A stretch of DNA of 64,000 nucleotides from Bacteroidales bacterium (GTDB lineage Bacteria > Bacteroidota > Bacteroidia > Bacteroidales > P3), in the NCBI GenBank assembly GCA_017483575.1, contig JAFUWF010000005.1, positions 114 to 64,113 of the forward strand, in the 5' to 3' direction. A program made the position numbers and the translations under genes. The notes below the pieces were generated by a model. It saw only the letters and a list, made by a program, of their open reading frames with translations, was not told the DNA's origin and did not search any database. Shown piece by piece: positions 5,289 through 51,534 of the stretch; position 1 is the first letter of the stretch; each line of letters opens with the position of its first letter.

Positions 5289-5359
5289 TGTCCTATGGTG
5301 TAATGGTAGCACATCAGATTTTGGTTCTGCTTGTCTAGGTTCGAATCCTGGTAGGACAA
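5289..5359 (+). tRNA. tRNA-Gln (anticodon UUG)
   Basis: Hand-folded cloverleaf. Acceptor stem 5289-5295/5352-5358 has 7 perfect bp. D stem is 5298-5301/5309-5312 with GG in the loop. Anticodon loop TTTTGGT has TTG at positions 34-36. T arm is CTAGG-TTCGAAT-CCTGG. Confidence 0.85.
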
Positions 5360-5368
5360 CCTCTCGAG

Positions 5369-14640: not shown

Positions 14641-16857
14641 TCACTTGATGGTGATGACGGCACGACGGTTCATGTAGCGGTGCTCCTCGGTGTCGTTGGG
14701 GACAACGGGCTCGCGCTCGCCCTTGGAGGCGGTGGTGATGTTGGCGGCGGGGGCGCCACGCTTCACCATGAGGGCCTTGAGGGCTTCGGCGCGCTTCATA
14801 CCGTACTTCATGTTGCCTTCGTCGGAACCGATGCTGTCGGTGTGACCGGTGACAACAACCTTGAGGTTGCGGTCGGCAGCCATAGCCTTGCAGATGGCGT
14901 TGATGGCGCGGTCGGTCTTCTCGTCGAACTTAGGTTCGGTCTTGGCGAAGTCGAAGTTGACGGTGGCGTTGATCTCATCGAGGACTTTCTGGAGTTGAGC
15001 GCGGTCGGCAGGCTTGTTCTCGACAGGCTTGCTGGCGGTGCCACAGGCGCGCTGGGCGGCATCGCGGGCCTTGACGGCGGCGCGGTAGGCGGCAGCGGTG
15101 TTGCCCATGCGGGCAGCCTCGGCGGCCTCGGCGGCATACTGCTTGGCCTCCTTGACGGCGGCCTGAGCCTCGGCGCTGTTGTTCTTGGCGGCGCAGGCTT
15201 CACCGGACTCGGCGAAGGACTTGGCGGCGGCGGCGTAGCTCTCGGGCAGGTTGCCACGGTAGGCCTTGCCGGCGGCATCCTTACCATCGGTCAGAGCGGG
15301 CTTGCTGCCCGTCTCGTTGGCCATGGCGATGGCCTCGTTGGCGAGGTTGTTGGCGAAGTTGGGATCGTTGTAGGCAGCATTGCCACGGTCGGTGCCGCAG
15401 GCAATTTCGGAGTTGATCTTGGCATTGCGGCTGGCGGCCATAGCGCAGTCGAGGCCATCCTTATGGGCGGCTTCGGCATAGAGGGCAGCGTCGTCGGCAG
15501 CCTGGGAGGCGGTGGGCTGGTTCTTCTTGCCAGCGCACTCGCGGGCATCGGCGGCGTAGCTGTCGGCGATGTCGCCATAGGCCTCGTTGAAGAGGTCGTA
15601 GGCCTTGCAGTACTGGCCTTTCTTGTGGGCAGCTTTGGCGTCGGCGGCAGCGGCCTTGGCGTCGGCAACAGCCTCCTTGGCGGCGGCGGAGCCGGACTCG
15701 TTGGCGGCCTGCTCGGCCTCGGCGAGGTCGGCGTCGATGTTGGCCATAGCGGCGGCGAGGTCAGGATTGTTCATGCGACGGGCATTGCAGCGGGCCTCGC
15801 GGGCGGCAGCCTCTTCGGCGGCCTGGGCGGCGGCAGCAGCCTCATCGTCGGGGTTGGTGTAGGTGTTGTTGTTGCCATTGCCGGCATTGTTGTTGCCATT
15901 GCCAGCGTTGTTGTTGCCGGAGTTGTCGTAGGGCACGAGAGCACCCTCGTTGTCGCCGCCCTTGGTGGAGTGGCAGTTCCAACCGACGTTGATACCGATC
16001 TTGAGACCGACGTTGAGACGGTGGAGCTCATCGATCTGGTTGGAGTTGTAGACACCGGTGTAGTCGCTCACCAGGGGACCAGTGGTGGTGGTGGCAGTGG
16101 TGGCATCGGGGGCCACGAGGAGGTTGGTGCTGGAGGTACCGTCGAGGAGGTTGGTGATGCCGTAGCCACCATAGAGGCCGAAGTAGAAGCCCCAGTGGTT
16201 GGAGAGGGCATAGTTGAAACCGAGGTCGGCGATGACGCTGACACCCATCTGCTTGAGGTTTTCATTGTCGCCGGACTCGTCGGCATTGTAGGTATCGAAA
16301 CCATAGGCAGGGAGGTCGCGGTATTCCACGTTGGTGGCGGGGAAGTAACCAGTGACGGTGAAGGAACCGTCGTCGGCCTTGTAGGTGCTGTTGTTCAGCG
16401 GGAAATCGAGCTGAGCGCCGAGGCCAAGGAGGAAGAACCAACGCTCACCCATGGGTGCGCGCCAGTAGAGCTCGATGGGGACGTTGACGGACATCACGGT
16501 CTGGATTTCTTTCCAGCTGTCGAAGCCGACGTGGGGATAGTAGGTGAGGTTGTTGGCGGGGTGGACGAGAGAGAGGGCGTTGTTGGCATTGTCGACCCAG
16601 TCGTAGGTGGCGCCAGAGCGGGAATAGTCGAACTGGACACCGAGACCCATACCGAAGTGTTTGCCGAAGAAATGGATGTACTTGAACTCGCCAAGGAAGC
16701 CGAGTTGGGGATTCCAGGAGCCATCGGCAGGACTAAACATCAGCGTGTTCATACCGCCACCGATATTGAAGCCGATGTAGTTGCTGTGCTGGTTCATCTG
16801 AGCCTGCGACCCAAGGGCGAGGGCGAGGGCTCCAAACAAGATGAATATTCGTTTCAT
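14641..16857 (-). CDS. OmpA-family outer-membrane protein with N-terminal beta-barrel, Asn/Gly repeats and a long Ala-rich linker
   Basis: Signal peptide MKRIFILFGALALALGSQAQ. Barrel-like N-terminal half. NNAGNGNNNAGNGNNN repeat. C-terminal OmpA_C motif (VVVTGHTDSIGSDEGNMKYGMKRAEAL...NRRAVITIK). Confidence 0.8.
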   Translation of the reverse strand: MKRIFILFGALALALGSQAQMNQHSNYIGFNIGGGMNTLMFSPADGSWNPQLGFLGEFKYIHFFGKHFGMGLGVQFDYSRSGATYDWVDNANNALSLVHPANNLTYYPHVGFDSWKEIQTVMSVNVPIELYWRAPMGERWFFLLGLGAQLDFPLNNSTYKADDGSFTVTGYFPATNVEYRDLPAYGFDTYNADESGDNENLKQMGVSVIADLGFNYALSNHWGFYFGLYGGYGITNLLDGTSSTNLLVAPDATTATTTTGPLVSDYTGVYNSNQIDELHRLNVGLKIGINVGWNCHSTKGGDNEGALVPYDNSGNNNAGNGNNNAGNGNNNTYTNPDDEAAAAAQAAEEAAAREARCNARRMNNPDLAAAMANIDADLAEAEQAANESGSAAAKEAVADAKAAAADAKAAHKKGQYCKAYDLFNEAYGDIADSYAADARECAGKKNQPTASQAADDAALYAEAAHKDGLDCAMAASRNAKINSEIACGTDRGNAAYNDPNFANNLANEAIAMANETGSKPALTDGKDAAGKAYRGNLPESYAAAAKSFAESGEACAAKNNSAEAQAAVKEAKQYAAEAAEAARMGNTAAAYRAAVKARDAAQRACGTASKPVENKPADRAQLQKVLDEINATVNFDFAKTEPKFDEKTDRAINAICKAMAADRNLKVVVTGHTDSIGSDEGNMKYGMKRAEALKALMVKRGAPAANITTASKGEREPVVPNDTEEHRYMNRRAVITIK

Positions 16858-16885
16858 ATAACTGTCTTTTTATTTGTTTCTAAAA

Positions 16886-19800
16886 TTAATATTTGATTAC
16901 ACGAGCGACGATACCGTCGACACTGACAGTGTAGCTGCCGGCGCCGAAGCGAGAGAAGTCGACCACGGTGGACTTGCCCTCGAAGGTGGTGTTGACGAGC
17001 GTCACGCCCATCACGTTCATCACGCGGAGGCTGTGGCTGGCGCTGTAGGGGTTCTCGATGGTGATGTTCACCTGGTCGACAGCGGGGTTGGGATAGGCAT
17101 CCACAGTGGCTTCGAGAGAAGCGGCCTCAGGGACGAGGGTCGTCACGTCGTACTGCTCGCAGGTCTGGACGCTGTTGCCATTGATGACCATAGTGACATG
17201 ATAGCTACCGGTGAGACCGCCTTCTTCCTGATAGTAGGGGCCGTCGCCGACATAGGTGCCGTTGTGGTACCACTTGACGGAAGACTGGTCGATGCAGTTG
17301 CAGGTGTCGACAATGGAGATGACATCGCTGAAGATTGGCATGGTGTAGTTGCGGGAGAGGTTGACGAGGAAGCTGACGGGGATGGCAGCGCTCTCGAACT
17401 GAGGATAGGCGCTGTTGCGGAGGGTCAGGGTGGCGTTGTAGTTGCCGTAGAAGGCATCGACGGGGATGACGAGGTCGACGTTGCCGGCGGTGGCGATGTT
17501 GGTCCAAGCCACATCGGTGAAGCCCTGAGCGTGGGCGGCGTCGTCATAGAGGAGCTGATACTGGTCAGGGGTGCCGCTGGTCAGATAGTACTGGATGGCG
17601 GCAGCGTCGCCGGAGCAGTAGCCGCCAGCGCTGACGGCGATGCCGTTGCCAGAGGTGCCCTGGGTGTTGTCGAAGACGAAGGGAGCCACGATGACACCGC
17701 TGGTGGTGATGACCTGGGTGGGGCTGGCGAGCGTATAGTTGGCCATGTCTGCGCCGACGAGGGTCAGCTGGGCGGTGATGGTCTTGTTGTCGCCGACGTT
17801 GGCGTCGTCATAGGTGGCGACGGTGAGGAGACCGAGGTCGTCGTTGCCGAAGACGGGACTGGGGGTGCCCATGTTGTTCACGGTGGCGGTGTTGGTGCCG
17901 TCATAGAGCTTGGCGGTGACAACGGAGATGCCGGTGGCGACCACGGGGGCGGGTACGATGGTCAGGGTGTTGATCAGGGTGCCAGCGATCTGATAGTTGG
18001 TGTCAGCCGGGAGGGCGGTGATGGTGTAGACGCCGACGTTGCGGGCCTCGGGGACCTCATTGCCATTGGCATCGGTGACCACCAGCAGGGCGGGGACGAC
18101 GTTGGCGTTGTCGTCGACATAGGTAGCGGTGATTTCGCTCAGATAGGAGGTGCCGTTGTAGGTGACGGTGGTGTCGACATGCGACCAGGTGAGCGGATAG
18201 GTGTTGCGCTCGTAGATGGCATGGGTGAGGCAGTTGAAGGCGGGCATGGTGACGAGGGCGGGGGTCCAGCCGGTCAGGGTGTAGCCGGGACGGGAGACGG
18301 TGGGATAGGAGACGCTGTCGCCATAGAGGACGGAGACAACGGTATCCACGCCGGCCTCGACGGTGCCGCCGTTCAGCACGTAGGTGAGGTCATAGTGGTT
18401 GCGGACATAGTGGAAGTTGATGATGGTGTCGCGGCTGAAGTTCAAAACGGTATCCGTGGCCTTATCGGTGGTGAAGCCGACATAGGTGTTGGCGACCGTG
18501 ATGAGGTCCTGACCCATGGGGGCGATGCCGAAAGCGGAGTCGATCATGGTCTCGGGATAGGTGCCGTCGAGGGCCTGGCGGTAGTGATAGACCGTGTAGC
18601 GGGCATCGGTCAGGGCGTTGTACTCGTACCATTTGGCATAGAGGACGGTGTCGCAGGTGAGGACATCGTTGAGGAAGTTCCAAGGAGTGGTGAACTCAGG
18701 GTTGATGAAGTAGGCCGAGAAGATGGTGTCGGCGCCAACGTATGTGGGACGCGAGGGAGCCGGGACGATGCGGTTGTCGACAGTGTTGACGATGGCCACG
18801 GAGTCGGCATATCCGGCCTGGCCCTGGCGGGCGTTGTAGTTGACGAAGGTGACGCGATAGCCGGCGCCCACAGTGTAGTGGAAGGGCACGGAGTCGGCAT
18901 CCATATTGGGGACAATGGTATAGCGGGCAGGCAGGTAGGCGCTGACATCCTGGCCGTACTTGCCGCCGAGGACGGTGACGTTGGCACCGGTCAGGGGGTT
19001 CACCACGAGGATGCGGGCGTTGTTGACGATGACGTTGAGGCTGCTGGGGCTCAGGCTGGCGACGGAGTCGAGGCTGTTGATGACCACGGTGCTGGTGGCG
19101 CCGCTGACACCGCCAAGATAGTTAACCATGCCGTTCTGCAGGACGACGGTATCCTCGATGTCGTCGATATAGAGAGAACCCTGAATCATGTTGCCCTGGA
19201 GGTCGATGACGGCACCGTTCTTGATGGTGTCGATGCTACCGCCGATGGTGTTGCGAGCCAGGAAGACAGTGTCGTTGGCAGCCGCGGCGGCGAGACCGAG
19301 GGTGCGGAGGTACTTGCGATAGTTGCCCGAACGGAAATAGGCGTCGGCGCCGATGGTGGCGCTGGTGGCGGCAGCGGTGCTGTCGAGGAGGGTCAGTGTG
19401 CCGGTGGCGTCGCTGCCGAACTGGGCGAAGACGGCGCTGGGGACATTGAGGGAGGAGATGGAAGCGTTGGAGGAGTCGAGCAGGCTCACGGCAGGAGCGT
19501 CGGTGAGGCTGTTGAGATAGCTGCCGGCGATGGTGACGTTGGCACCGTCGTGGGCAACCACAGGCTGGCCATACGACTTGGCGCCGAACTGGCGGAGGGT
19601 GAGGGTGGCGGCGTTGACATCAAAGATGTTGCCGGAACCAGCGGGGGTAACGATGTCGCTGTCGGTGGCATTGCCGAACCAGGAGAGCTCAGTGCCGTTC
19701 ACGCTGACCAGAGCCGAGGAGGGGTCGACGTAGGAACTGACCATGGGGTAGCCCATCTGATAGATGGTCAGGGGCTTGCTGATGGCGACGGGGGCGTTCA

Positions 19801-20389
19801 CACGGATGGTGTCCATAAAGTTGAGAACGGCCGAATCAGGGCTGAGCGTAATGGCGTCGGTGAACGAAGAGTAGGCAGACATCTGGCCGTCGACCACGAG
19901 GGGGCGTGCGGTGCCGAGCATGGTGCCGCTGACGGTCATGGTGCGGTTGAAGGTGCCATCGACAGACTGCGACATCAGCGAGGCCGGGGCGAAGTAGCCC
20001 GTGTCGAGGGTCTGACGGCTGGAGGTGCCGAGGACGTAGCAACGGTTATTGGCGTCGAAGGCCACGATGAAAGCATAGCCATAGGTGGTGCTGTCAACGG
20101 TGGCAGAAGCGGAGTAGTTGCCATTGAGGGAGGTGATGGCCATCACCGTCGAGGCAAGGGCGTTGTCGGCTGCCACGAGGGCGGTGCCACCCCAAGAAGA
20201 CATGAGGTAGGCCGAGTCGGCGATGTAGAGCTGCCCGGGGTTGGCAGCATAGATGGTGGCACTGGTGAGTGCCGCGCGGTCGAGGGTGCGCACGTCGACA
20301 TTGACGTTTACGCTCTGTGCCCTCAGGCCGTTGCCGGGCATCACCGATGCAATCAGTGCCCCCAGCAAGAAGAGTGTAGTTCTTTTCAT
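16886..20389 (-). CDS. Large T9SS-secreted adhesin-like surface protein
   Basis: Signal peptide. Listeria-Bacteroides (InlB B-type) repeats (GYTLTGW...). YDG/MBG-like units (KLYDGTNTATV..., NYTLASPTQVITTSGVI). C-terminal T9SS CTD (VDAYPNPAVDQVNITI...GSYTVSVDGIVARVIKY). 1167 aa. Confidence 0.8.
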   Translation of the reverse strand: MKRTTLFLLGALIASVMPGNGLRAQSVNVNVDVRTLDRAALTSATIYAANPGQLYIADSAYLMSSWGGTALVAADNALASTVMAITSLNGNYSASATVDSTTYGYAFIVAFDANNRCYVLGTSSRQTLDTGYFAPASLMSQSVDGTFNRTMTVSGTMLGTARPLVVDGQMSAYSSFTDAITLSPDSAVLNFMDTIRVNAPVAISKPLTIYQMGYPMVSSYVDPSSALVSVNGTELSWFGNATDSDIVTPAGSGNIFDVNAATLTLRQFGAKSYGQPVVAHDGANVTIAGSYLNSLTDAPAVSLLDSSNASISSLNVPSAVFAQFGSDATGTLTLLDSTAAATSATIGADAYFRSGNYRKYLRTLGLAAAAANDTVFLARNTIGGSIDTIKNGAVIDLQGNMIQGSLYIDDIEDTVVLQNGMVNYLGGVSGATSTVVINSLDSVASLSPSSLNVIVNNARILVVNPLTGANVTVLGGKYGQDVSAYLPARYTIVPNMDADSVPFHYTVGAGYRVTFVNYNARQGQAGYADSVAIVNTVDNRIVPAPSRPTYVGADTIFSAYFINPEFTTPWNFLNDVLTCDTVLYAKWYEYNALTDARYTVYHYRQALDGTYPETMIDSAFGIAPMGQDLITVANTYVGFTTDKATDTVLNFSRDTIINFHYVRNHYDLTYVLNGGTVEAGVDTVVSVLYGDSVSYPTVSRPGYTLTGWTPALVTMPAFNCLTHAIYERNTYPLTWSHVDTTVTYNGTSYLSEITATYVDDNANVVPALLVVTDANGNEVPEARNVGVYTITALPADTNYQIAGTLINTLTIVPAPVVATGISVVTAKLYDGTNTATVNNMGTPSPVFGNDDLGLLTVATYDDANVGDNKTITAQLTLVGADMANYTLASPTQVITTSGVIVAPFVFDNTQGTSGNGIAVSAGGYCSGDAAAIQYYLTSGTPDQYQLLYDDAAHAQGFTDVAWTNIATAGNVDLVIPVDAFYGNYNATLTLRNSAYPQFESAAIPVSFLVNLSRNYTMPIFSDVISIVDTCNCIDQSSVKWYHNGTYVGDGPYYQEEGGLTGSYHVTMVINGNSVQTCEQYDVTTLVPEAASLEATVDAYPNPAVDQVNITIENPYSASHSLRVMNVMGVTLVNTTFEGKSTVVDFSRFGAGSYTVSVDGIVARVIKY

Positions 20390-20524
20390 GTTGCTTAATA
20401 TTTAATTATACATTTATAAAATTACATTTTTCCAACACTATTGGTCTTAAATCCACGCTCCGAAGAGCCGACCATTGCTGTCGACCCTTCGGGGCGTTGG
20501 AACGCTATGCTTGTGAGTGCGACC

Positions 20525-21397
20525 TTATTTGGTCGAAATCACGAGGTAGTCGGTGTATTTCCAGAACTGGGTGGGGTTGAGGATGCGCAGGTAGGCGGTG
20601 ACGCTGCTGTTCTCCTCGTCGGCCACGAGCTCGTAGCTGTTCTCGGGGTGCTGCGAGATGACGGTGGCTTTCTTGCGGTTGACGGTGATGGTGGTCACCT
20701 TGGTGCGGTCGATCTCGGTGAAACGCTCGGTGTTCATGTCGGCCACGGTGCCCTGTTTGCGGCCGATGCCGATGAATCCGCCGCTCTTGGCCACGATGCC
20801 GGCCTCTTTCAGCTCGCTGTAGGAGCCCACCACGAAGTAGGCGCGGTTGGCGTCGGCCAGCTGCTGGGCGATGTACTGGTCCTTCTCCTGGTTGGAGGCG
20901 GTCAGCTCGGTGACGTTCTTGTTGAGGCCCTTGATGACGACCTTGTTGTTCTCAAGTTCGGTGAGCAACTCGGCGATCTGGGCTTCCTGGGCGGCGCTGC
21001 GCTCCTCGAGGCGGGTGATGTAGGCCTGGAGGTCGCTGTTCTTGCGGCCAAGCTCGCTGACGCGGCTGCTGAGCTGGGCAATCTTCTGCTTGTTGGCGGC
21101 CATCATGCTCTCGATGGAGCTCATCTGGTCCGAAATCTCCTTTTTGTGGTCGTAGGAGCCCTCGGTGTTGTTGCGGCGGAGCTCCTGGACATTGGAGTAC
21201 TTAGAGTTGATCATCGACAGATTGTCCTCAATCTCGTTCAGCATAGAGAACAGACCGTCGATCTCGGAATCCTTGGCATCGACAACACCCATGAGGGAGT
21301 CGATGGTCTTCTTGGAAGAGTCGAGTTCTTTCTGATTGCAGCTCACTATAGAAGCGGTGGCAGCAAAAAGGCCAATGGCCAAAAAGATTTTCTTCAT
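20525..21397 (-). CDS. Coiled-coil lipoprotein, function unknown
   Basis: Lipobox ASIVSCNQ. About 170 aa of heptad-like coiled coil, then a globular C-terminal domain (YFVVGSYSELKEAGIV...). Confidence 0.6.
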   Translation of the reverse strand: MKKIFLAIGLFAATASIVSCNQKELDSSKKTIDSLMGVVDAKDSEIDGLFSMLNEIEDNLSMINSKYSNVQELRRNNTEGSYDHKKEISDQMSSIESMMAANKQKIAQLSSRVSELGRKNSDLQAYITRLEERSAAQEAQIAELLTELENNKVVIKGLNKNVTELTASNQEKDQYIAQQLADANRAYFVVGSYSELKEAGIVAKSGGFIGIGRKQGTVADMNTERFTEIDRTKVTTITVNRKKATVISQHPENSYELVADEENSSVTAYLRILNPTQFWKYTDYLVISTK

Positions 21398-21756
21398 TGT
21401 TGTTGTTATTTTTTTAATTTGTTTTTTCTAATTTCATATTCCGTTTTCACGAAACCTTTTCCACCTAATCATGGTGTCTCTATAACGGCACCATTCGGAT
21501 AATATTGTACAGAAAATCAAAAATATTTGTTAAAAAATATTAAAAATTCTCAAAAAACAGCAAAATTTCCAGCCATACTAAAATACTGATAACCAACAAC
21601 AAAACACAATCATACTCTTCCATCCACTTACCACCCTCCTACCCTCCTCCTACCACCCTCCCCTCCGGAAAAAGATGGTACGGTCGGAGTACGAAAAACA
21701 ATAAAACCGGAGACACCACGGGTGCGCCTCCGGTTTGTTTGGGGTATAACGGGGGG

Positions 21757-22974
21757 TTAGCGACGGACGACAATCTTCGCCACGCTGTCGGCCACGCGAA
21801 GCATGTAGACGCCGTTGGCCAGGTTGCGGAGGTCGATGCGGGTCTCGGTTCCGTTGACGACGAAGGAGGCGATGATGCTGCCGCGCATGTCAAAGAGGAC
21901 GGCCTTGCCGCTGACGCCGCTGACGGTCAGCATGTCAGAAGCAGGGTTGGGATAGACGCTGACAACGGCGGTCTGGACACCTTCGATGCCAGTCACCTGG
22001 GGCACGCTGACGGGGTTGATGGCCATGGGGTAGACATAGATGTAGTACCACATATCATAGTCGGCATAGTAGGAGCTGTCGACAACCACACCGGCGGCAG
22101 GTTCGGCCCATTTCTCGAAGGAGCCGTTGGTGAGAGTCTGAGCCATGCCGGCATCGGACACGCCGTTGTTCTTGCTCTCCCAGTAGCTGAAGGCCTGCTT
22201 GCGGAGGGTGTCGCCAGGGGCGACGACGAAGAGGATGTCGTCGAGGAAGCCGCCGCTGAGGGTGAAGCTGAAGCGGGGGTCGGCGGCGGCGATGTCGGTC
22301 ATCATGTCGCTGACGGTCTTGGTGCTGTCGTACTTGTAGCCCCAAGCCAGGGCGGTGTCGGCCCAGTTGACGGCCATGATTGCCTGGTTGCTGCCATTGC
22401 CCACCCAGTAGAGGATGTCGCTGGCGGCGATGGTGGCCTCTTCAGGCTGCGGCTCGACAACGGGAGCGGGAGCCATGATCATGGTGTCGGCGGGATAGGA
22501 CTCATAAGTTTCTTCGTCCATGGGCATCCAGTCGACAAAATCGCCATTGACCAAAATGTCGGAGGAAGCACCCATCGACTGATTGCTCGTACCGTCGGCG
22601 GCTTTCCAGTTGTACCACCACCAGCCGGCAGTGCCAACAAGATTGAGGCCCAGGTCGGCATTGGCATAGGACAGGTTGTTGACGATGGTGTAGGTGGTGG
22701 TGCCATGCTCAATGGTTAGGTTGGCATCGTAGGCGGCGATGGTGTCCATCAAGTCAGCGATGGAGACATTGGAGCCATTCCACTGCACACCCCAGGCAAT
22801 GCCGATATTACCTGCCGTGGCGTCGTTCCAGGTGACAGCGATGACAGCGCGGTTGCTGCCCGTGCCAGTCCAGAACTGGATGTCGCTTTGCGGAACAACG
22901 GGGTTCTCATACTGAGCCATAGCGCCCACAGAGAGCATCAGGCCCATTGCAATAGTAAGTACTTTTTTCATCAT
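21757..22974 (-). CDS. T9SS-secreted protein with two copies of an unassigned Trp-rich module; cobalamin-riboswitch controlled
   Basis: Start MMKKVLTIAMGLMLSVGAMAQ (22972-22974) inside track ORF 21757-23070. Modules begin SDIQFWTGTGSNRAVIAVTW and SDILYWVGNGSNQAIMAVNW. CTD is VSVYPNPASDMLTVSG...GVYMLRVADSVAKIVVRR. The riboswitch lies immediately upstream. Confidence 0.8.
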   Translation of the reverse strand: MMKKVLTIAMGLMLSVGAMAQYENPVVPQSDIQFWTGTGSNRAVIAVTWNDATAGNIGIAWGVQWNGSNVSIADLMDTIAAYDANLTIEHGTTTYTIVNNLSYANADLGLNLVGTAGWWWYNWKAADGTSNQSMGASSDILVNGDFVDWMPMDEETYESYPADTMIMAPAPVVEPQPEEATIAASDILYWVGNGSNQAIMAVNWADTALAWGYKYDSTKTVSDMMTDIAAADPRFSFTLSGGFLDDILFVVAPGDTLRKQAFSYWESKNNGVSDAGMAQTLTNGSFEKWAEPAAGVVVDSSYYADYDMWYYIYVYPMAINPVSVPQVTGIEGVQTAVVSVYPNPASDMLTVSGVSGKAVLFDMRGSIIASFVVNGTETRIDLRNLANGVYMLRVADSVAKIVVRR

Positions 22975-23089
22975 AATGATACTGTTTTTAAGGTTTATAC
23001 ATTCTTTCATTCCAGTATCGGGAAGCGCCTGCGGGGGAGAAATCCATAACGAAGACCAACGACACACCATGGGTGTCTGTCACCGGATG

Positions 23090-23290
23090 CCTTTTCCTCG
23101 AAAGCGATGCCGACTTATGCGTTTTGGCAGGTCTTCTGGCTTGCTCCTCTCGACCCTGTCTTCCCATGCTCCTATGGCGGCGCACAGTGACTAACAGATT
23201 GGGTCTCAAACTCTCGAGCTTACAGCAGCGGGACTGCGCAGGACTCTCACCTGCTTCCCTTTTCGTACCCCGAAGGGTAACCAAAACGGG
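23090..23290 (-). promoter_or_regulatory. Cobalamin (B12) riboswitch, copy 1
   Basis: The minus strand reads ...GGTTACCCTTCGGGGTACGAAAAGGGAAGCAGGTGAGAGTCCTGCGCAGTCCCGCTGCTGTAAGC...CACTG...GGGAAGACAGGG...GCAAGCCAGAAGACCTGCC. This covers the conserved core and the B12 box. Confidence 0.85.
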
Positions 23291-23292
23291 TG

Positions 23293-23300
23293 CAAAAATA
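23293..23300 (-). promoter_or_regulatory. -7 promoter box (TATTTTTG on minus strand) driving riboswitch copy 1
   Basis: TTTTGTATTTTTGCAC immediately 5' of the riboswitch, identical in the paralogous copy at 30494-30501. Confidence 0.55.
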
Positions 23301-23320
23301 CAAAATAAAAACAATATGAC

Positions 23321-23352
23321 AAAAAAAAGAAGCCCCGAAGGACTTCTTTTTT
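23321..23352. terminator. Intrinsic terminator after the giant T9SS gene
   Basis: A-run, GAAGCCCC-GAA-GGACTTC hairpin, then T-run, lying between the stop at 23375 and the next promoter. Confidence 0.6.
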
Positions 23353-23374
23353 GTGTGTGAAGGAAGTGTCTCGA

Positions 23375-26300
23375 CTAGCGTTTCTTGACAATCTTGTGCA
23401 CAGTGCCTTCGGCACGGAGCATGTAGACGCCCTCGGCGAAGGACGCGAGGTCGATGACGTTGTTTCCTTCGAGCAGACGGTAGCTGCCCACCATGCGTCC
23501 GGAGAGGTCGAAGAGCTGTGCCTCGACGCTGCGGGAGACAGCGACGTTGACACGGTCGGTGGCGGGGTTGGGCCATACGGCCTCGATGGCGAGGTCGATG
23601 TCCTCGATACCGATAGGCTGCGGGGCGACGTACTCGTTCAGCACGGCTACGCCTGTGAGGTCGAAGCCGCCGCTACCCCAGACGGTGTCGCTGGTGGGCC
23701 AGGGGTCGTTGACGATGTGGCCGAAAGCGTCGTAGGTGGCGTACTCGGGGTCGATGGTGCCGACGACGTCGACAATGCGCACATAGACGATGCTGTCGAC
23801 GTTGATGCCGGTGCTGTCGCGCAGTTCCTCAAGGTCGAAGGGGGTGCCATATCCCACGCGGAACTTGCCGGCGAGGTTGTTGATGAAGGTGGGGTCGACA
23901 ACGGAAACCACCTGCGTCTCGGTCTGGGTGAGGCTGGTGGCGGGGAAGCGGACGAAGCGCTCTCCGTCGGAGCTCACCTCGACGAAGGCCAGTTCGAGGA
24001 AGAGGTCGTTGAAGGAGTTCTCGAAGACCGCGAAGTCGGGGCCTTCACCGTTGCGGATAGGAGTGGCAAAGGTGAGGGTGGCGGTGCCGCCGTCGCCAAG
24101 GCTGACGGCCACGGTGGTCGAGGTGCCGGCAGGGCCGATGGCCATGGAGTCGGCGCCGTAGTGCACGACGGGGCCTTCGGGGTCGGTGATGTCCACGGGG
24201 CCGCGGACGACGGTGCAACCCGTAGCCCAGGCCACGATGGCGCTGCTGTCGGCAGCAATGGCGTTGCAACCCTCGGTGCCCACAGCGCCGCAGAAGGGGC
24301 CGTGCTCGGGCACAGGAGGTTCGACGGGGCTGGTGCCGGTGGTGTCGGGCACGGTGACGGGATGGATGGTCATGGGGTAGACGCTGGTGTAGATCCAGTA
24401 GGTGACACCATCGTACTCATAGCTGGAGCTGTCCACCACGATGCCTGCGGCCGGGTCGCTCCACTTCTCGAAGTCGCCGTTGCTGAGGGCCTGGGCCATG
24501 CCGGCGTCCGACAGGCCGTTGTTCTTGCTTTCCCAGTAGTTGCCGGCGGTGATACGCAGGGTGTCGGTCATGCCGGCGGCGGTATCGATATAGAGAATGT
24601 CGGCGAGGAATCCGGTGCCGGTGTAGCTGAAGCGCGGGTCGGCGGCGGCGATGGCATCCATCATGTCGGTGACGGTGGCGATGCCGTTGTAGCGGTAGCC
24701 CCACGCCAGGGCGGTGTCGGCCCAGTTGACGGCCATCACGGCCTCGTTCGAGCCCTCGCCCACCCAGTAGAGGATGTCGCTGGCGGCGATGGTGGCCTCG
24801 ACGGGCGTCTCGGTGGTGTCGACGGGAGTGGTAGTGGTGTCAGGCACAGAGACGGGTGTGGGAGCCTTGGTCCAGGCTTCCTGCATGTAGTAGCCATACT
24901 GGAAGTCCCAACCGATGGCGGAGTTCATGTCGCCGTATTTGAAGACATCGCCGTTGTGGAGCGTCGAGGAGGCACCTGCACCGGCACTGACTCCGTTGAG
25001 GTTGGTCCACCAGAAGTTGTAACCCACAGTGGGGTCGACAGGCGAGAGGCCGAGGGTGTCGCCATTGTCGAGTATGAAGTGGATGTCGCCACTCATAGAA
25101 GGCGAGCCATCAGTCCAGAAGCGCGGGTCGGCGGCGGCGATGTCGTTGACCATGGTCTGTGCCGTGGTGCTGCCGTTGAAAAGATAGCCCCAGGCGAAGG
25201 CCGTGTCAGGCTGGGCATAGTTGACGATGAAGACAGCACTGTCGGCACCGGTGCCCACCCAGTAGAGGATGTCGCTGAAGGCGATGGTGGCATCGATGGG
25301 GTCGGCAGGAGGTCCAGGAGTGACCGAAGGCGGCGTCACGGGCACCACGGTGCCGTAGACGAAGTAGCAGTCGGTGGAGATTTCGATCAGCGAGCCGGGA
25401 TTGATCCACTCGTCCTCGAACTCGGAGGCATCGAGCATCATGCCGTCGAGCTTCAGACAGTTGTAGTAGTTCACGCCGGCGGTGACGGTATAGAGCGAAT
25501 CGTCATCGTCGACAAAGCGCACCATATCCATCTCGAAAATGGAGCCCATGTAGCGGCTGTAGTGATAGTAGAAGCGGGGGTCGTAGGTATCCAGGCTGTC
25601 CAGCACATCGGAGACGAAGACACCCTCGTCGTCGTCGAAGGCCAGACCCCAGGCATAGGTGGTGGGGGTGTCGTCCTCGTCGACCCAGTTGATGATGACG
25701 ATGGCGCTGTCGGGACCATGGCCTGCCCAGAAGAGGATGTCGCTGTTGGTGATGGTGCCGGGCTCAATGGTGTCGATGGGGGCAGGGGTGGTGGTATCGA
25801 TGGCAACAAGGAGGTTGTCGATGCCGCAGTAGCGATAGCCGGGACCCGTGGTGCTGGCGGTAGTGCTTGTAACCTCCCACTTGAAGGTGAGACGGGCATC
25901 GGCGGGCATGCCGGCATACTGGCTGAAACGGACGGTGTCGTGATGAAGCACACGGTTGTCGGCGGCCATGGTGTCGAGGCCAACGAAGGTGGCGGTGTCG
26001 CTCGTTATGTAGCCTACTACCAGACGGGCGCCATTGCTGCTGGTGCGGCGGTCGAAAGTGAGGACGGTCTGCGAAAGGGCCTGCTCGAACGTGGGCAGAA
26101 TGGCATAGCGGCTGGTACCGGTGGCGTTCATGTCGGCAATGTGGTCGGCGTTGTCGCCAGTGTAGATCTGGCTGCCGATGAGGGCCAGGAAAGCGTCGTT
26201 GGCGGCGATGGCGCCAAAGCTGTTGGTGCTGGTCGAGTAGCCGATGCCACCGAAATAGGTGGAGGTCTCAGAGTTGGGGGTATAGGCATACTGTGTCGTA

Positions 26301-29300
26301 CCGTTGCCGACAGCCGTCCAGCATTCGGGCATCATGGCGCCTGCCATGTGGGGACGAATCGACTGGTTGCTGACGTAGCCGGAGAAGTCCTCCTGGTAAG
26401 GCAAAACCTGTGCTGTGGCACAAGGATTGACCGGGGGCTGAGGAGTGGTGGTGTCGGCCGTAGCGGCGTGGACGCTGAGGTTGTCGATGCGGAAGTCGTT
26501 GTCGCTACCGCTGACAGTGCTCTCGCCGTAGAAGGCCAAACGCACCGTCTGTCCGGTGAAGGCAGAGAGCGAGATGCTGGCCTGGGAAACCGTGTTGGAA
26601 ACTGTGGCGAGGGCATAGTCGTCGCGAGCAGTGTCGCTACCCCACAGCGCCACAGGGGTCCAGCTGGTGCCGTTGTCGGTAGTGGCCAGGACGGCAAAGC
26701 GGTCGTCGGCACCGGGAACAGCCTCCGGGGCATCGGCATTGTTGTAGTCGGTCAGCATATAGTCGAACGTCAACTCGGCATTCTCGGTGAGGGAGATTTC
26801 GGGTGTGACAATCCAGTATTTGCACGACGTGCCGTAGATGTTGACCTTGATATGGGGCGACGACTCGAAAGCCGTGGTCGAAAGCGACCAACCACTGCTC
26901 GCGGAGGTCAACGTAGCACTTTGGGTGGAATCAACATAGAGGCCAGAGTACCTGTTCCAGCAGGAAGAGAGCTGCGAAATATTGGTCATATTGTCGAAGT
27001 TCATCTCCCAAGGCAGCGGCATCGGGGCGCACGACGTGGTAAAGCTTGCGCTGCGGGCATTGGTGGGGTTGCTCCAGCAGATGCTGCGGACATCGACGGT
27101 GTAGGTGGTGCTGGGAATGAGACCCGTGAGGGCATAGGTAGTGGCACCCGTGATGGTGATGCTATCGGCATTGACACCATCGCTCCAGCGGACCAGATAC
27201 GAGCCGGCCTCGCTGGGGTCGGTCCACACGAGGGTGGCGCCATAGGCGCTGACGCTGTCAGCCGTGAGGGTAGCCGGACGGTTGCAGCTGCTGATGGTGT
27301 CGACCGTCAGATTGTCAATATAGCTGGTAATAGCGGTGGTGCCAGTGCTGGTCTGCATGATGGCGATGCGGCGGCCCGTGCCGGCATAGCCGCTAAGTTC
27401 CACTTCGAACTCGTTCCAGCCGACGACCGTGGGGGTAAGGGTTGCCAGGCGGGTGAAAGTGGTGGTGTCGGACACGTTGTCGCTGACACCGACGGCTATC
27501 TTCACCTTATTAATATTATATGTTGTCCCTCCGTATTTGTACATAAAACTCACCTTCAGCGTGTTAACACCATCCTCGAATTCGGGCAGGTAGGCTACGC
27601 TGTACTCCTTGATGTCGCTGGTGGTGCCTTTCGAGTACATCTTGAGCGACTTGAAGCCCTCGTAAGCGTTGCCCGAACCCGTGGCGCAGTAGGGGTAGTT
27701 GTTGGTCACCAGGCTGTTGGACGAATTCATATACAGGCGGTTCCAGCAGCGGTTCATGCCCTGCGACTGGGTGGCGGTCCAATCCTCAAAGCCCTCTTCG
27801 AAAGGAAGCTGCGCAACAGGAGCGCAGAGCGTGGACACAGACATTGTTTGCGGCAAAGTAAGGGCACCGTCGCTGCAGACGGAAACCACCCGCAGCTCAT
27901 AGTCGGTCGAAGCCATAATACCGTCAACAACCACGACGGTATCGTAAAAGTCGGCGCTGTCGCTGACACCACCTGCAGTAAGATAGTAACGGTAATGGTT
28001 CACCAACGTGGGGTCGGCAACATGCAGCGTGAATCCGTCAGTAGTGATATTGTCAACACTGATGCTTTGGGCGCGCACGCAGGCGGGCATCTCGTGTACA
28101 TCAATCTCGTCAACATACCACGATTTGGCCGAGCCGCCGGAGGGCAGATAGCGCAGCGCAATGCGGGAACCCGCAGGGGCATCGACAAAGAGACTGGTAC
28201 AGAAGTCAAAACCATTGGTAAACTGCGAACTGGCGTAGCCAACCACGCTGACAAACGAACTGCTGTCAGTTGCATCGGTGACATAGCCCACCTGCAGCGT
28301 GCCGCCATAATTGCCATTCTCCGATGGACGAGCCACAAAACTTATCTCAAGGTTGCTGATTTCCTGGTCAAATTCAGGCAACACCACGATGTCGCGCGAA
28401 TCGCTGTAGTTGCCATAGATACGCATCGTGTAGCCCTCGTCGCCGTAGGCGTAGGTGACGCTCTGCGAACGGGGGAAAACCTCCAGGCGGTCCAACGAAC
28501 GGGCTTTCAGGAAACCCCAACAAGGAAGTGTGCTGTCAGCCACCGCATATCCAAACCCATTGCTCACATCCTCAAACTGGTTGAAGTTCTCGTGATAGGG
28601 GGTGGCGATGATGCCACAGGCTGTGCGGAAAACCGCCTCGGTAACGCCAGTGGTGGTGTCGGCACAGAGCGTGCGAACGCTTACCACATAGCGCATATTG
28701 GGCTGCAAGTCACTGATAGTATAACTGTTGCTGTAAACCTCCACACTGTCGCCAGCGGCGTACACCATGTAGTGGTTTGTCCCGTTGGGGTCAACAATTG
28801 TGATGTCGGCCGACGACGAGGTGACATTCGAGACCAACACCTGCGAAGGTCGCACGCACGAAGGCAACTCGCTTACCGTCACATTGTCCAGATAGGCGGG
28901 TCCGTTGTCATTCGACCGCAGCGCCAGTCTGCCTTCCGTAAAACCGGCAAAGGATACATCGAAGTGTGTCCACCCATTGCCGTCAGGCAGACAGGTGGCG
29001 ATAGGAGTGAACGTGCTGTCGACCGCAACATCGGACATAACACCCACCTTAAAACCATGACGGTAGGTAGACAGAACATCGAAACTCAGCTGCAGAGCCT
29101 CGGGGCTGTCTTCAAAGGGGGGCAGCACAAGAATGGTGGGGCTCGTCACACGGCTACTGACATAGAGACACTTGCCTCCGGAAACGTTGACCGACGTGGA
29201 GTTGTTGACATAAGGGTCGGACGCGCTGTAGGCGTTCTTCAAGTCCCAGCAGAACACCTGGCTGGCAAAGGATACCGAGGAGCTGGAATAGGACATACCG

Positions 29301-30133
29301 TTGTACGACTGGAAGTCTTCGCTCCAGGGCAGGTCCGCGTGGGCAATCGTCACGCAGGGGGTACGGAAGGAAGTGTTGAGTTCGTAGGTCTGTGTGCCGT
29401 CGGAGCAGTTGCTCACGAGAGTCACCTTGTAGGCCGTGTTGGCCGTCAGGCCAGAGAAAGTGTAAGTATGGGTTGTAATAATAGCGCTGTCCACCAGCGT
29501 GGTGCCGGCAAACAGGCGCAGCGTGTAGTTGTTCACATTGGCGGTGTCGTTCACCGTAACGTCAACAGAGGTCGTAGTGATGTTGGCCACGCTGACGCTC
29601 TGCGCCCTTGCGCACGAGGCACCGGCATTGGGGTTGGTGGCAGCGGTGGCGGTGGTGAGGGAGAACATGCACGAGGAGCTGATCTCCATCACGTCGCCGT
29701 CGGCCATGGCCTGCGAGCCGTAGGCACTGGCATAGCTGCCATTGATTGTGTAGCACCAGTAGCTGGCCGACGAACCCGAGACAAGCGAGCCGTCGTTGTA
29801 GTAGAATCCCGTCATGAAGCCGGAACTGATGCCGGTATAGGTCGTGCGCTCGTCGTAGGTGGCAATGGTGTCGAGCATGTTGGCGGCCGTAGCCGAGCCG
29901 TTCCAGTGTACGCCCCAGGCCAGGGCGAAGTTGCCGTTGGGATTGTCGTCCCATCCGATGATGACCACGGCCGAGTTGCTACCCGTGCCCACCCAGTACT
30001 GCACGTCGGAGGCCGAAAAGGTCACCGACTTGCGCTGCGGCGGCAGTTCGTGGCCGTCGTTGTTGCTCAACTGGGCTGTGGCGCCAAACGCCAGCGTCAG
30101 CCCGAGAGCAAGTGTCAATAGTTTTTTTACCAT
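23375..30133 (-). CDS. Giant (2252 aa) T9SS-secreted multidomain surface protein; cobalamin-riboswitch controlled
   Basis: Signal peptide MVKKLLTLALGLTLAFGATAQ. One N-terminal and three C-proximal copies of the Trp-rich module. About six FN3-like plus jelly-roll (choice-of-anchor-like) units. A GPDFAVFEN...LELAFVEVSSDG domain. T9SS CTD (VWPNPATDRVNV...GVYMLRAEGTVHKIVKKR). Confidence 0.85.
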   Translation of the reverse strand: MVKKLLTLALGLTLAFGATAQLSNNDGHELPPQRKSVTFSASDVQYWVGTGSNSAVVIIGWDDNPNGNFALAWGVHWNGSATAANMLDTIATYDERTTYTGISSGFMTGFYYNDGSLVSGSSASYWCYTINGSYASAYGSQAMADGDVMEISSSCMFSLTTATAATNPNAGASCARAQSVSVANITTTSVDVTVNDTANVNNYTLRLFAGTTLVDSAIITTHTYTFSGLTANTAYKVTLVSNCSDGTQTYELNTSFRTPCVTIAHADLPWSEDFQSYNGMSYSSSSVSFASQVFCWDLKNAYSASDPYVNNSTSVNVSGGKCLYVSSRVTSPTILVLPPFEDSPEALQLSFDVLSTYRHGFKVGVMSDVAVDSTFTPIATCLPDGNGWTHFDVSFAGFTEGRLALRSNDNGPAYLDNVTVSELPSCVRPSQVLVSNVTSSSADITIVDPNGTNHYMVYAAGDSVEVYSNSYTISDLQPNMRYVVSVRTLCADTTTGVTEAVFRTACGIIATPYHENFNQFEDVSNGFGYAVADSTLPCWGFLKARSLDRLEVFPRSQSVTYAYGDEGYTMRIYGNYSDSRDIVVLPEFDQEISNLEISFVARPSENGNYGGTLQVGYVTDATDSSSFVSVVGYASSQFTNGFDFCTSLFVDAPAGSRIALRYLPSGGSAKSWYVDEIDVHEMPACVRAQSISVDNITTDGFTLHVADPTLVNHYRYYLTAGGVSDSADFYDTVVVVDGIMASTDYELRVVSVCSDGALTLPQTMSVSTLCAPVAQLPFEEGFEDWTATQSQGMNRCWNRLYMNSSNSLVTNNYPYCATGSGNAYEGFKSLKMYSKGTTSDIKEYSVAYLPEFEDGVNTLKVSFMYKYGGTTYNINKVKIAVGVSDNVSDTTTFTRLATLTPTVVGWNEFEVELSGYAGTGRRIAIMQTSTGTTAITSYIDNLTVDTISSCNRPATLTADSVSAYGATLVWTDPSEAGSYLVRWSDGVNADSITITGATTYALTGLIPSTTYTVDVRSICWSNPTNARSASFTTSCAPMPLPWEMNFDNMTNISQLSSCWNRYSGLYVDSTQSATLTSASSGWSLSTTAFESSPHIKVNIYGTSCKYWIVTPEISLTENAELTFDYMLTDYNNADAPEAVPGADDRFAVLATTDNGTSWTPVALWGSDTARDDYALATVSNTVSQASISLSAFTGQTVRLAFYGESTVSGSDNDFRIDNLSVHAATADTTTPQPPVNPCATAQVLPYQEDFSGYVSNQSIRPHMAGAMMPECWTAVGNGTTQYAYTPNSETSTYFGGIGYSTSTNSFGAIAANDAFLALIGSQIYTGDNADHIADMNATGTSRYAILPTFEQALSQTVLTFDRRTSSNGARLVVGYITSDTATFVGLDTMAADNRVLHHDTVRFSQYAGMPADARLTFKWEVTSTTASTTGPGYRYCGIDNLLVAIDTTTPAPIDTIEPGTITNSDILFWAGHGPDSAIVIINWVDEDDTPTTYAWGLAFDDDEGVFVSDVLDSLDTYDPRFYYHYSRYMGSIFEMDMVRFVDDDDSLYTVTAGVNYYNCLKLDGMMLDASEFEDEWINPGSLIEISTDCYFVYGTVVPVTPPSVTPGPPADPIDATIAFSDILYWVGTGADSAVFIVNYAQPDTAFAWGYLFNGSTTAQTMVNDIAAADPRFWTDGSPSMSGDIHFILDNGDTLGLSPVDPTVGYNFWWTNLNGVSAGAGASSTLHNGDVFKYGDMNSAIGWDFQYGYYMQEAWTKAPTPVSVPDTTTTPVDTTETPVEATIAASDILYWVGEGSNEAVMAVNWADTALAWGYRYNGIATVTDMMDAIAAADPRFSYTGTGFLADILYIDTAAGMTDTLRITAGNYWESKNNGLSDAGMAQALSNGDFEKWSDPAAGIVVDSSSYEYDGVTYWIYTSVYPMTIHPVTVPDTTGTSPVEPPVPEHGPFCGAVGTEGCNAIAADSSAIVAWATGCTVVRGPVDITDPEGPVVHYGADSMAIGPAGTSTTVAVSLGDGGTATLTFATPIRNGEGPDFAVFENSFNDLFLELAFVEVSSDGERFVRFPATSLTQTETQVVSVVDPTFINNLAGKFRVGYGTPFDLEELRDSTGINVDSIVYVRIVDVVGTIDPEYATYDAFGHIVNDPWPTSDTVWGSGGFDLTGVAVLNEYVAPQPIGIEDIDLAIEAVWPNPATDRVNVAVSRSVEAQLFDLSGRMVGSYRLLEGNNVIDLASFAEGVYMLRAEGTVHKIVKKR

Positions 30134-30289
30134 GTTTTAAATACTGTTTTAAAAAGTTAAACAATTAATCGTCTCTCTTCCACAACATCCGGTAAAAAAG
30201 AACTTTCGCAAAACGGGAAAACAGACAATCGCGCACAGAAGACAATCTGCCCTGCCATGGGCAAACAGAGACTCTGCTGACGGTAGGCC

Positions 30290-30495
30290 TTTCCTCGAAA
30301 GCGTCCCGGATATTTTTATCGTTTTGGCAGGTCTTCTGGCTTGCTCCTCTCGGCCCTGTCTTCCCATGCGGCTATGGCGTCACACAGTGACATAACAGAT
30401 TGGACCTCAAACTCTCGAGCTTACAGCAGCGGGACTGCGCCGGACTCTCACCGGCTTCCCTTTTCACACCCTTGCGGGTGACCAAAACGGCTGCA
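30290..30495 (-). promoter_or_regulatory. Cobalamin (B12) riboswitch, copy 2
   Basis: The minus strand reads GGTCACCCGCAAGGGTGTGAAAAGGGAAGCCGGTGAGAGTCCGGCGCAGTCCCGCTGCTGTAAGC...CACTGTGTGACGCCATAGCCGCATGGGAAGACAGGG...GCAAGCCAGAAGACCTGCC. It is a paralogue of copy 1. Confidence 0.85.
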
Positions 30496-30501
30496 AAAAT
30501 A
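30494..30501 (-). promoter_or_regulatory. -7 promoter box (TATTTTTG on minus strand) driving riboswitch copy 2
   Basis: TTTTGTATTTTTGCAG immediately 5' of the riboswitch. Confidence 0.55.
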
Positions 30502-30673
30502 CAAAATAAAACTCATTCCGCCAAAAAAAACTTCTCCTCCCCCACCCCATCCACCATCCGAACCAACCATCAACGGAACGCCAACGGACCATCATCGGAT
30601 CAAAAACGCTCCATCAACGCACCGCCAACCAATCCTCCACAAACCCCTGTCAACCAACCATCAACATCGCCAC

Positions 30674-30792
30674 TTCTCATATCGTATTCATATAGTATTC
30701 ATATACTTCTCATATAGTATTCATATACTGTATATAAGAAGTATATGAGAAGTATATGAATACTATATGTATACTATATAAGAACAGTCGAA
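30674..30792. repeat. AT-rich long imperfect palindrome (family P), copy P2, inverted relative to P1
   Basis: Arms match P1 and are centred at 30729. The asymmetric flank GAACAGTCGA is on the right, the reverse complement of the P1 left flank. Confidence 0.8.
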
Positions 30793-51472: not shown

Positions 51473-51534
51473 TGTTGTGTTGCTATATATTATATTGTAT
51501 ATATACATTATTATACCTCTCTCCAATTTGCCCG

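Follow-up and report, generated by a model that had tools for sequence, protein, structure and literature searches.

Two predicted secreted proteins behind cobalamin riboswitches in a Bacteroidales bacterium carry repeated, putatively transcobalamin-like modules and are candidates for corrinoid capture

The window analysed here, by which we mean the whole 64,000-nucleotide (64-kb) stretch of contig JAFUWF010000005.1 from an uncultured rumen Bacteroidales bacterium, carries on its minus strand two genes, for proteins of 2252 and 405 amino acids (aa), each of which lies behind a cobalamin (vitamin B12) riboswitch of its own (Table 1). They are called gene 1 and gene 2 in what follows. The whole window was scanned with Rfam, which gave three matches, one to a tRNA and two to the cobalamin riboswitch model RF00174; the last two are full-length, lie on the minus strand and score above the gathering score of 31.5 bits (Table 1). 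A sequence-only reading of this DNA had proposed two such riboswitches from a set of core elements and the B12 box, and had named an RF00174 search of the two stretches as the check. The search found both, and the B12 box AGCCAGAAGACCTGCC as well as the conserved core elements that had been quoted are present in the two aptamers. Both are class-I cobalamin riboswitches. The aptamers are identical at 168 of 193 positions (87%), with compensatory differences in the P2 and P4 helices, and compensatory changes are also seen at 10 of the 26 predicted pairs when 33 riboswitches of the family are compared. The leaders that follow the aptamers share only about 45% identity. Gene 1 and gene 2 start 175 and 134 nucleotides (nt), respectively, past the aptamer ends on the same strand.

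Each unit also has its own -7 box, as the sequence-only reading had noticed. The box TATTTTTG abuts the aptamer in both units, so that each aptamer starts at it, and a TTTG is found 19-20 nt upstream of the box. It may be added that TAnnTTTG is the Bacteroidota -7 promoter consensus and that it stands at the equivalent place upstream of all 81 related riboswitches scanned. An intrinsic terminator had been noted between the two units as well, and we found it directly past the stop codon of gene 1 as the hairpin GAAGUCC-UUCG-GGGCUUC followed by U8; it was missed by a generic terminator scan and confirmed by RNAfold, and its T-run overlaps the -33 TTTG of promoter 2 (23320-23323). The locus is therefore two independent transcription units, each made of a promoter motif, an aptamer, a leader, a single gene and a terminator. 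In both leaders a conserved GCUUUCGAGGAAA(A)GGC hairpin is followed by a second hairpin, and the sequence on the 3′ side of the latter (GUCUUCUG or GGUCUUC) shows complementarity to the B12 box. The complementary match is 8 nt long in leader 1, a length equalled in 3 of 300 shuffles, and 7 nt long in leader 2 (13 of 300 shuffles). These terminator-like hairpins and complementary stretches are suggestive of ligand-dependent control. RF00174 riboswitches are OFF switches in nearly all cases, and we infer B12-dependent repression of both genes.

The sequence-only reading had further held that the first gene downstream of each riboswitch is neither a transporter nor a B12-independent isozyme, and that each product has a signal peptide and a C-terminal sorting domain (CTD) of the type IX (T9SS) secretion system. 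Every one of these points holds. Both proteins begin with a predicted Sec signal peptide of the signal peptidase I (SPI) type ending in A-x-A|Q (MVKKLLTLALGLTLAFGATA|Q and MMKKVLTIAMGLMLSVGAMA|Q, as read from the sequence), in which A20 and Q21 are near-invariant among 52 homologues, and a Cys lipobox is present at the N-terminus of neither. Both end in a CTD that exceeds the curated cut-offs of 27 bits for PF18962 (Por_Secre_tail) and 23 bits for TIGR04183 (Table 1). When the full-length AlphaFold model of the 405-aa protein was searched with Foldseek, its CTD part matched the CTD structures of RgpB, PorZ and RemZ, and a PF18962/T9SS-type CTD is found in nearly all the close homologues listed and in most of the distant relatives tested. 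Type-A CTDs of this kind direct secretion, removal of the CTD and either attachment to the surface or release, and both window proteins are accordingly predicted to be exported by the T9SS and to be attached to the surface or released. No por/spr gene was found in the window; a third CTD protein encoded there (16886-20389) implies that the T9SS is in use. For gene 2 a longer open reading frame (ORF) of 437 aa was set aside in favour of the 405-aa form, which is identical to a database protein and can be aligned over its full length with 51 homologues. Public annotation describes the two proteins only as "choice-of-anchor J domain-containing" and "T9SS type A sorting domain-containing".

Self-comparison of the two proteins uncovered a module of about 140 aa, present in four copies in the 2252-aa protein (one N-terminal and three close to the C-terminus) and in two copies in the 405-aa protein. 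Its signature begins with SDILYWVGxGSN..V..V.W....AWGY; a helix with DPRF at its end and a hairpin come next, and YW...NG......L.nGDF.kW closes it. Residues W11, G13, G15, W32, G33, D53 and R55 of the module are invariant. The product of gene 1 is thus ordered as signal peptide, module b1, four units of fn3 plus choice-of-anchor J, modules b2-b4, a further domain which we call domain X, and the CTD, and that of gene 2 as signal peptide, modules s1 and s2 (s2 at aa 180-324), and the CTD. Taken together, b3 and b4 share 47% identity with the s1-s2 pair of the smaller protein, and relatives carry as many as 7 modules per protein. The stalk of fn3 and choice-of-anchor J units is missing or far shorter in many relatives.

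The fold of the module was predicted with AlphaFold2. In the 405-aa protein the modules are modelled confidently, with a block predicted local distance difference test (pLDDT) score mostly of 85-96, and a single module modelled from an alignment of 42 window and database sequences reached a pLDDT of 96.5 and a predicted template modelling (pTM) score of 0.89. A Foldseek search of the PDB with the single module placed only transcobalamin (7qbg, 7qbf, 7qbe, 4zrp, 2bb6 and 2v3n), intrinsic factor (3kq4 and 2pmv), haptocorrin (4kki) or the Ruminococcus gnavus DUF4430 protein 3u7z among the top 11 matches, at a probability of 0.96-1.00 and a query-normalised template modelling score, TM(query), of 0.42-0.54. 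Generic beta-grasp proteins and toxin domains fill the next ranks at a probability of 0.66 or less, and the full-length 405-aa model gave the same matches to B12 binders. In the predicted topology a helix (residues 42-52) is followed by a beta-hairpin (56-61 / 64-73), and a beta-hairpin that follows the helix is what defines the transcobalamin-like clade (Burroughs et al. 2007, PMC1796856). On the sequence side, DUF4430 (PF14478, the transcobalamin-like C-terminal domain) was by far the most frequent Pfam match for a diverse set of 50 modules taken from related loci (9 of 50 at E<1, the best at 9e-6), and a precomputed PF14478 annotation is carried by some of the database homologues. Because the Foldseek matches are so consistent, we regard it as well supported, if not proven, that the modelled module belongs, as a divergent member, to the transcobalamin-like (DUF4430) clade in the SLBB beta-grasp superfamily.

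To see how far the arrangement extends, GTDB representative genomes were scanned with a degenerate pattern, which gave 78 loci, all of them from metagenome-assembled genomes of uncultured rumen or gut Bacteroidales. Together with the window these loci hold 88 module ORFs and 260 module copies. Riboswitches were called with a nucleotide hidden Markov model (HMM) made from Rfam-confirmed riboswitches, combined with an HMM of the module; Rfam itself confirmed 19 related riboswitches in 16 loci at 93-114 bits, the low-scoring subtype included. For about 69 of the 88 module ORFs the riboswitch ends 25-240 nt before the first ATG. For about 12 it lies 1-3 kb upstream, ten of these having btuG or btuB-btuG in between and two being downstream or split module ORFs, and the other 6 are cut off by the start of their contig. 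Since all module genes with intact upstream DNA have a riboswitch, the linkage has no counter-example. The sequence-only reading had suggested a survey of related genomes for a link between riboswitch and CTD gene; across the 78 loci the link between riboswitch and module gene is conserved. In 12 loci a DUF5074 BtuG-like lipoprotein gene lies immediately upstream of the module gene, behind the riboswitch. The lipoprotein of locus L031 matches the BtuG chain of the Bacteroides thetaiotaomicron BtuB1-BtuG1 complex (8blw_B) at 7.8e-86, and L024 ("bacterium P3") has a riboswitch followed by BtuB (8blw_A, 1.6e-113), BtuG and the module gene in that order. A search of 1.84 billion representative proteins with the module profile collected 1317 clusters at E<=1e-3. 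One locus, L079, is syntenic with the window and has, in order, an M3 peptidase gene, a riboswitch, a gene for a 545-aa module protein, a gene for a lipoprotein with domain X, a Cbp1-like lipoprotein gene and, further on, UvrB. Given this synteny, the arrangement in the window is an expansion at a conserved chromosomal site.

The same genomes also contain a second RF00174 subtype, distinguished by its longer 5′ insertion (AAGUGGUGAAGG) and by a P6 region that is shorter (for example L031 4740-4927, L052 4926-5112 and L056 1042-1227). This subtype precedes the BtuG-like gene wherever such a gene is present, and is also found directly before module genes (L032, L056 and L052 7467-7653). Another kind of riboswitch, a SAM-II (long-loop) riboswitch (RF01726, 59.2 bits), was seen in the related genome L015 at 11073-11132 on the plus strand, some 1.5 kb downstream from its module gene.

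Domain X, of about 230 aa, separates the last module of gene 1 from its CTD and has the motif GPFCG...SLGDGG.ATLTF...GPDFAVFENSF...ELAFVEVSSDGERFVRFPA... Searches of Pfam and NCBIfam, and of the PDB with phmmer and with a profile, gave no significant relative of it; weak matches to LIC_13355, Cupin_3 and DHQ_synthase were judged to be noise. It is unrelated to the module as well (hhalign probability 0.08%). Its homologues in the database nevertheless number more than 8000. The domain follows the modules within one protein, or else is encoded by the ORF directly downstream, in 64 of 79 sequences (the 78 loci and the window), and where found it always adjoins modules on the same strand (other copies are at L003 9280-10269, L024 9587-10627 and L079 8001-8810). 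Its mean pairwise identity is 68%, as against 45% for the modules. Stand-alone copies come in two formats, one of about 328 aa with an SPI signal and a T9SS CTD, the other a lipoprotein of about 262-269 aa in which a Cys lipobox is followed by an acidic stretch. With the fusion to a CTD there are three kinds of anchor, and these argue for a role of domain X at the cell surface. The module fold and this conserved partner domain are additions to what had been noticed from the sequence at first.

The setting recalls what is known from Bacteroides, where the surface proteins BtuG, BtuH, BtuJ and BtuK are encoded behind cobalamin riboswitches, often in btuB operons, and are believed to pick up corrinoids and pass them on to BtuB (PMC6143338, PMC8941943, PMC12751083, PMC13616437). 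As to their folds, BtuG is a propeller, BtuJ a DUF4465 jelly roll and BtuK a PKD domain plus propeller (PMC6143338, PMC8941943, PMC12751083, PMC13616437, bioRxiv 10.1101/2025.07.01.662609). Relatives of the window genes likewise sit right after btuG or btuB-btuG. This adjacency is seen in 12 of the 78 related loci and not in the window; a riboswitch stands ahead of the module genes in the window and in its relatives. The differences are in anchoring and fold: all four Btu proteins are lipoproteins, whereas the window proteins have an SPI signal and a T9SS CTD and no lipobox, and in place of propeller, jelly-roll or other folds there are modules, tandem and multivalent, with a predicted transcobalamin-like beta-grasp. 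Searches of the window proteins against Pfam, NCBIfam, the PDB and Foldseek returned no BtuG, BtuH, BtuJ, BtuK, DUF5074 or DUF4465 match. The window proteins are therefore outside the BtuG/H/J/K families, though analogous in proposed function, and the two reviews consulted mention neither T9SS nor transcobalamin nor DUF4430.

A second comparison is with the transcobalamin-like proteins themselves. The beta-domains of transcobalamin, intrinsic factor and haptocorrin and the DUF4430 proteins have the beta-hairpin after the helix in common with the modelled window module. The latter differs from them in having a YWVGxGSN hairpin added at its N-terminus, and some of its copies also have additional strands at the C-terminus. 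Also, the animal binders pair the beta-domain with an alpha-domain, which the window proteins do not have. Extracellular bacterial members of the clade have been predicted to be B12 scavengers (Burroughs et al. 2007, PMC1796856), mostly in Firmicutes and archaea beside CbiO/CbiQ transporters of the energy-coupling factor (ECF) type, in contrast to the combination of riboswitch, T9SS and BtuBG in Bacteroidota found here. With T9SS type-A cargo such as RgpB and the haem-binding HBP35 of Porphyromonas gingivalis the window proteins share a Sec signal before Gln and the Por_Secre_tail domain; known cargo consists of proteases, adhesins, glycosidases and a haem binder, whereas the window proteins stand under a B12 riboswitch. 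In the literature searched we found no T9SS cargo under a cobalamin riboswitch, no corrinoid-binding T9SS cargo and no DUF4430-like domain in the Bacteroidota Btu system, and the module family is undescribed there.

On this basis the window proteins very probably belong to the B12 regulon. That they are corrinoid-capture proteins, analogous to BtuG/H/J/K of Bacteroides, we consider probable. The sequence-only reading had floated a corrinoid-scavenging function, and three independent computational lines now speak for it, namely the conserved riboswitch linkage, the operon context with BtuG and BtuB, and the module fold; corrinoid binding by the modules is suggested by the same fold, linkage and btuBG context. 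At low intracellular corrinoid the riboswitches would allow transcription to read through, the T9SS would export the module proteins, which would be attached to the cell surface or shed, and their multiple tandem modules would bind corrinoids in rumen fluid. The captured corrinoid would then be handed to the BtuG-BtuB outer-membrane importer. Domain X may aid retention or the hand-off to BtuG-BtuB.

Several observations weigh against this reading. The best window module scores 15.6 bits against DUF4430 (E 0.023), below the gathering score of 23.8 bits, and the Foldseek E-values of the B12-binder matches are weak (0.03-0.12). When PDB sequences were searched with phmmer and hmmsearch using the 405-aa protein, a single module and a profile of 50 modules, no B12 binder was found, so that transcobalamin cannot be reached by sequence alone; apart from the T9SS CTD, the only matches were to BLIP-II and Pizza6, which are spurious and due to low complexity. 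With weak E-values and empty sequence searches, the homology to transcobalamin is remote. Moreover, the transcobalamin beta-domain works with an alpha-domain that completes the B12 pocket, and module proteins have no such partner, while SLBB domains elsewhere bind polysaccharide or DNA. Importer genes were not found in the window either: Pfam on 20 of the 3′-side ORFs (33000-59407) detected no btuB, btuG or other B12 gene, the ORFs up to about 12 kb and those beyond 59.4 kb being outside the scan, and a SusC-like TonB receptor gene (36361-38790) is without a riboswitch. Lastly, the expression platform is understood only in part. Significant complementarity to the B12 box is found in just 8 of 28 family leaders, both window leaders included, and a universal terminator model built on it was rejected for this reason; with so few complementary leaders, ligand-dependent termination or sequestration by the leaders is offered as an inference only, held with moderate confidence.

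It may be argued that domain X rather than the module is the real corrinoid binder, or a docking unit for BtuB/BtuG, and that the modules are a spacer, a multimerisation scaffold or binders with a different ligand, for instance a lower-ligand base, cobinamide or a carrier protein for B12. The higher identity of domain X, its presence in most of the sequences next to the modules, and its stand-alone occurrence as a surface lipoprotein or T9SS form, which is reminiscent of the BtuH/J/K binders of Bacteroides, would all fit. Yet the 405-aa protein has its own riboswitch with neither a domain X nor a gene for it afterwards, and in about 15 loci with module genes domain X was undetected (a few of these are cut at the contig end). 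Besides, domain X has no detectable similarity to known B12 binders, whereas the modules do resemble a B12-binding fold. We therefore consider this alternative unlikely, and it is in any case compatible with binding by the modules, as both domains could bind.

The sequence-only reading had also allowed for adhesins deployed only under B12 limitation. On such a view these would be adhesins or surface-structure proteins that do not bind corrinoids, and B12 status would serve the riboswitch only as a niche or physiological signal for attachment or colonisation. Domains typical of adhesin-like surface proteins, namely fn3 and four copies of choice-of-anchor J, are indeed present in the large protein, and its neighbours encode a Cbp1-family adhesin lipoprotein, a T9SS protein with YDG and Listeria-Bacteroides repeats, and an OmpA protein. 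SLBB domains can bind polysaccharide (PMC1796856), and the similarity of the module to transcobalamin is, as said, remote. What is conserved in relatives, however, is the core of modules, domain X and CTD, while the fn3 and choice-of-anchor J stalk is variable or absent; the riboswitch linkage is invariant, the placement in btuB-btuG operons is that of accessory proteins of B12 capture, and within the fold it is specifically the B12-binding members that the module matches best in structure. The adhesin alternative is weakened and distinctly improbable. That the modules sequester corrinoids from competitors or store them outside the cell rather than feed the cell's own importer directly is a variant of corrinoid capture and no contradiction to it, and for all the high valency (up to 7 modules), the possible release of T9SS cargo, the absence of btuB/btuG beside the window units and the description of BtuJ1 as an extracellular reservoir (bioRxiv 10.1101/2025.07.01.662609), we think it very unlikely, as the presence of btuG or btuB-btuG in one operon with the module gene in 12 loci points to coupling to uptake, and induction when the cell itself is short of B12 would suit acquisition no less than sequestration.

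Around the two units, the genes directly downstream (14641-21397, minus strand) are further surface-protein genes without a riboswitch (Table 1). On the other side, the intergenic stretch that separates the promoter of riboswitch 1 from the divergent gene for an M3 peptidase contains a 125-nt palindrome at 30667-30791, with 62-nt arms that are 84% complementary and 1 nt apart, composed of AT-rich repeats with an 11-nt period. Beside it, at 30567-30629, are three CCATCAACG..CGCCAAC repeats at 22-nt spacing. The palindrome is not present in the syntenic locus L079. Elsewhere in the window, an ORF with a RelA/SpoT synthetase domain (43346-44446, plus strand) overlaps by 4 nt an ORF with an HD_4 hydrolase domain (44443-45012, plus strand), and the two look like a split small alarmone synthetase/hydrolase pair.

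Table 1. Positions of the two riboswitch units and of other features in the 64-kb window (MFE, minimum free energy; bp, base pairs)
Feature	Position	Strand	Details
Promoter, unit 1	30494-30525	-	-33 TTTG at 30522-30525; -7 box TATTTTTG at 30494-30501; read from sequence
Cobalamin riboswitch aptamer 1	30309-30501	-	RF00174, 111.7 bits, E 3.7e-27, model positions 1-189/189
Leader / expression platform 1	30134-30308	-	conserved GCUUUCGAGGAAAGGC hairpin; hairpin 30245-30266, then UGUCUUCUG complementary to the B12 box
Gene 1, 2252 aa	23375-30133	-	identical to NCBI MBR1549181.1
Gene 1, module b1	29645-30019	-	transcobalamin-like repeat (predicted); weak DUF4430 match, E 0.023
Gene 1, variable stalk	25784-29626	-	fn3, 6.1e-17; choice-of-anchor J NF038128, 102.7 bits, 4 stretches
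Gene 1, modules b2-b4	24356-25765	-	b2 25340-25765, b3 24851-25297, b4 24356-24802
Gene 1, domain X	23612-24313	-	aa 1941-2174
Gene 1, T9SS type-A CTD	23381-23578	-	PF18962, 39.9 bits; TIGR04183, 33.4 bits
Intrinsic terminator, unit 1	23321-23352	-	7-bp GC-rich stem, TTCG loop, A:U extension, T8; MFE -18.8 kcal/mol
-7 box, unit 2	23293-23300	-	TATTTTTG, TAnnTTTG match
Cobalamin riboswitch aptamer 2	23109-23300	-	RF00174, 108.2 bits, E 3.8e-26, model positions 1-189/189
Leader / expression platform 2	22975-23108	-	hairpin 23061-23077, then GGUCUUC complementary to the B12 box
Gene 2, 405 aa	21757-22974	-	ATG at 22974; identical to NCBI MBR1549180.1
Gene 2, module s1	22465-22899	-	
Gene 2, module s2	22003-22437	-	
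Gene 2, T9SS CTD	21778-21957	-	PF18962, 42.0 bits; TIGR04183, 34.0 bits
Intrinsic terminator, unit 2	21704-21736	-	13-bp stem, then T-rich tail; MFE -22.1 kcal/mol
Cbp1-family collagen-binding adhesin-like lipoprotein	20525-21397	-	
1167-aa T9SS-CTD protein	16886-20389	-	YDG and Listeria-Bacteroides repeat domains
738-aa OmpA-family protein	14641-16857	-	long Ala-rich middle
BspA-type leucine-rich-repeat surface protein	49586-51508	-	LRR_5, 1.8e-69; InlB B-repeat
tRNA-Gln (anticodon TTG)	5289-5361	+	sole tRNA in the window

The B12 that reaches ruminants, and through them much of what humans eat, is produced in the rumen and is an object of competition there, and work on B12 capture in Bacteroidota rests almost wholly on the lipoprotein relay (BtuG/H/J/K) of human-gut Bacteroides. 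The wider proposal, that the T9SS-using Bacteroidales of rumen and gut have an unrecognised corrinoid arm in which riboswitch-controlled, multivalent arrays of transcobalamin-like modules form a surface or shed scaffold and, with domain X, deliver to BtuG-BtuB, we regard as evenly balanced. If it is true, T9SS export, the fold of animal transcobalamin and intrinsic factor, multivalency and a partner domain X would be added to what is known of B12 capture; the proteins would be the first class of T9SS cargo for vitamin capture, and the transcobalamin fold would have a bacterial use in Gram-negatives that is independent of the alpha-domain. The analysis gives domain X its first functional context and adds a data point on the bacterial origin of the transcobalamin beta-domain, and for the abundant uncultured Bacteroidales of the rumen it provides a testable candidate for corrinoid capture.

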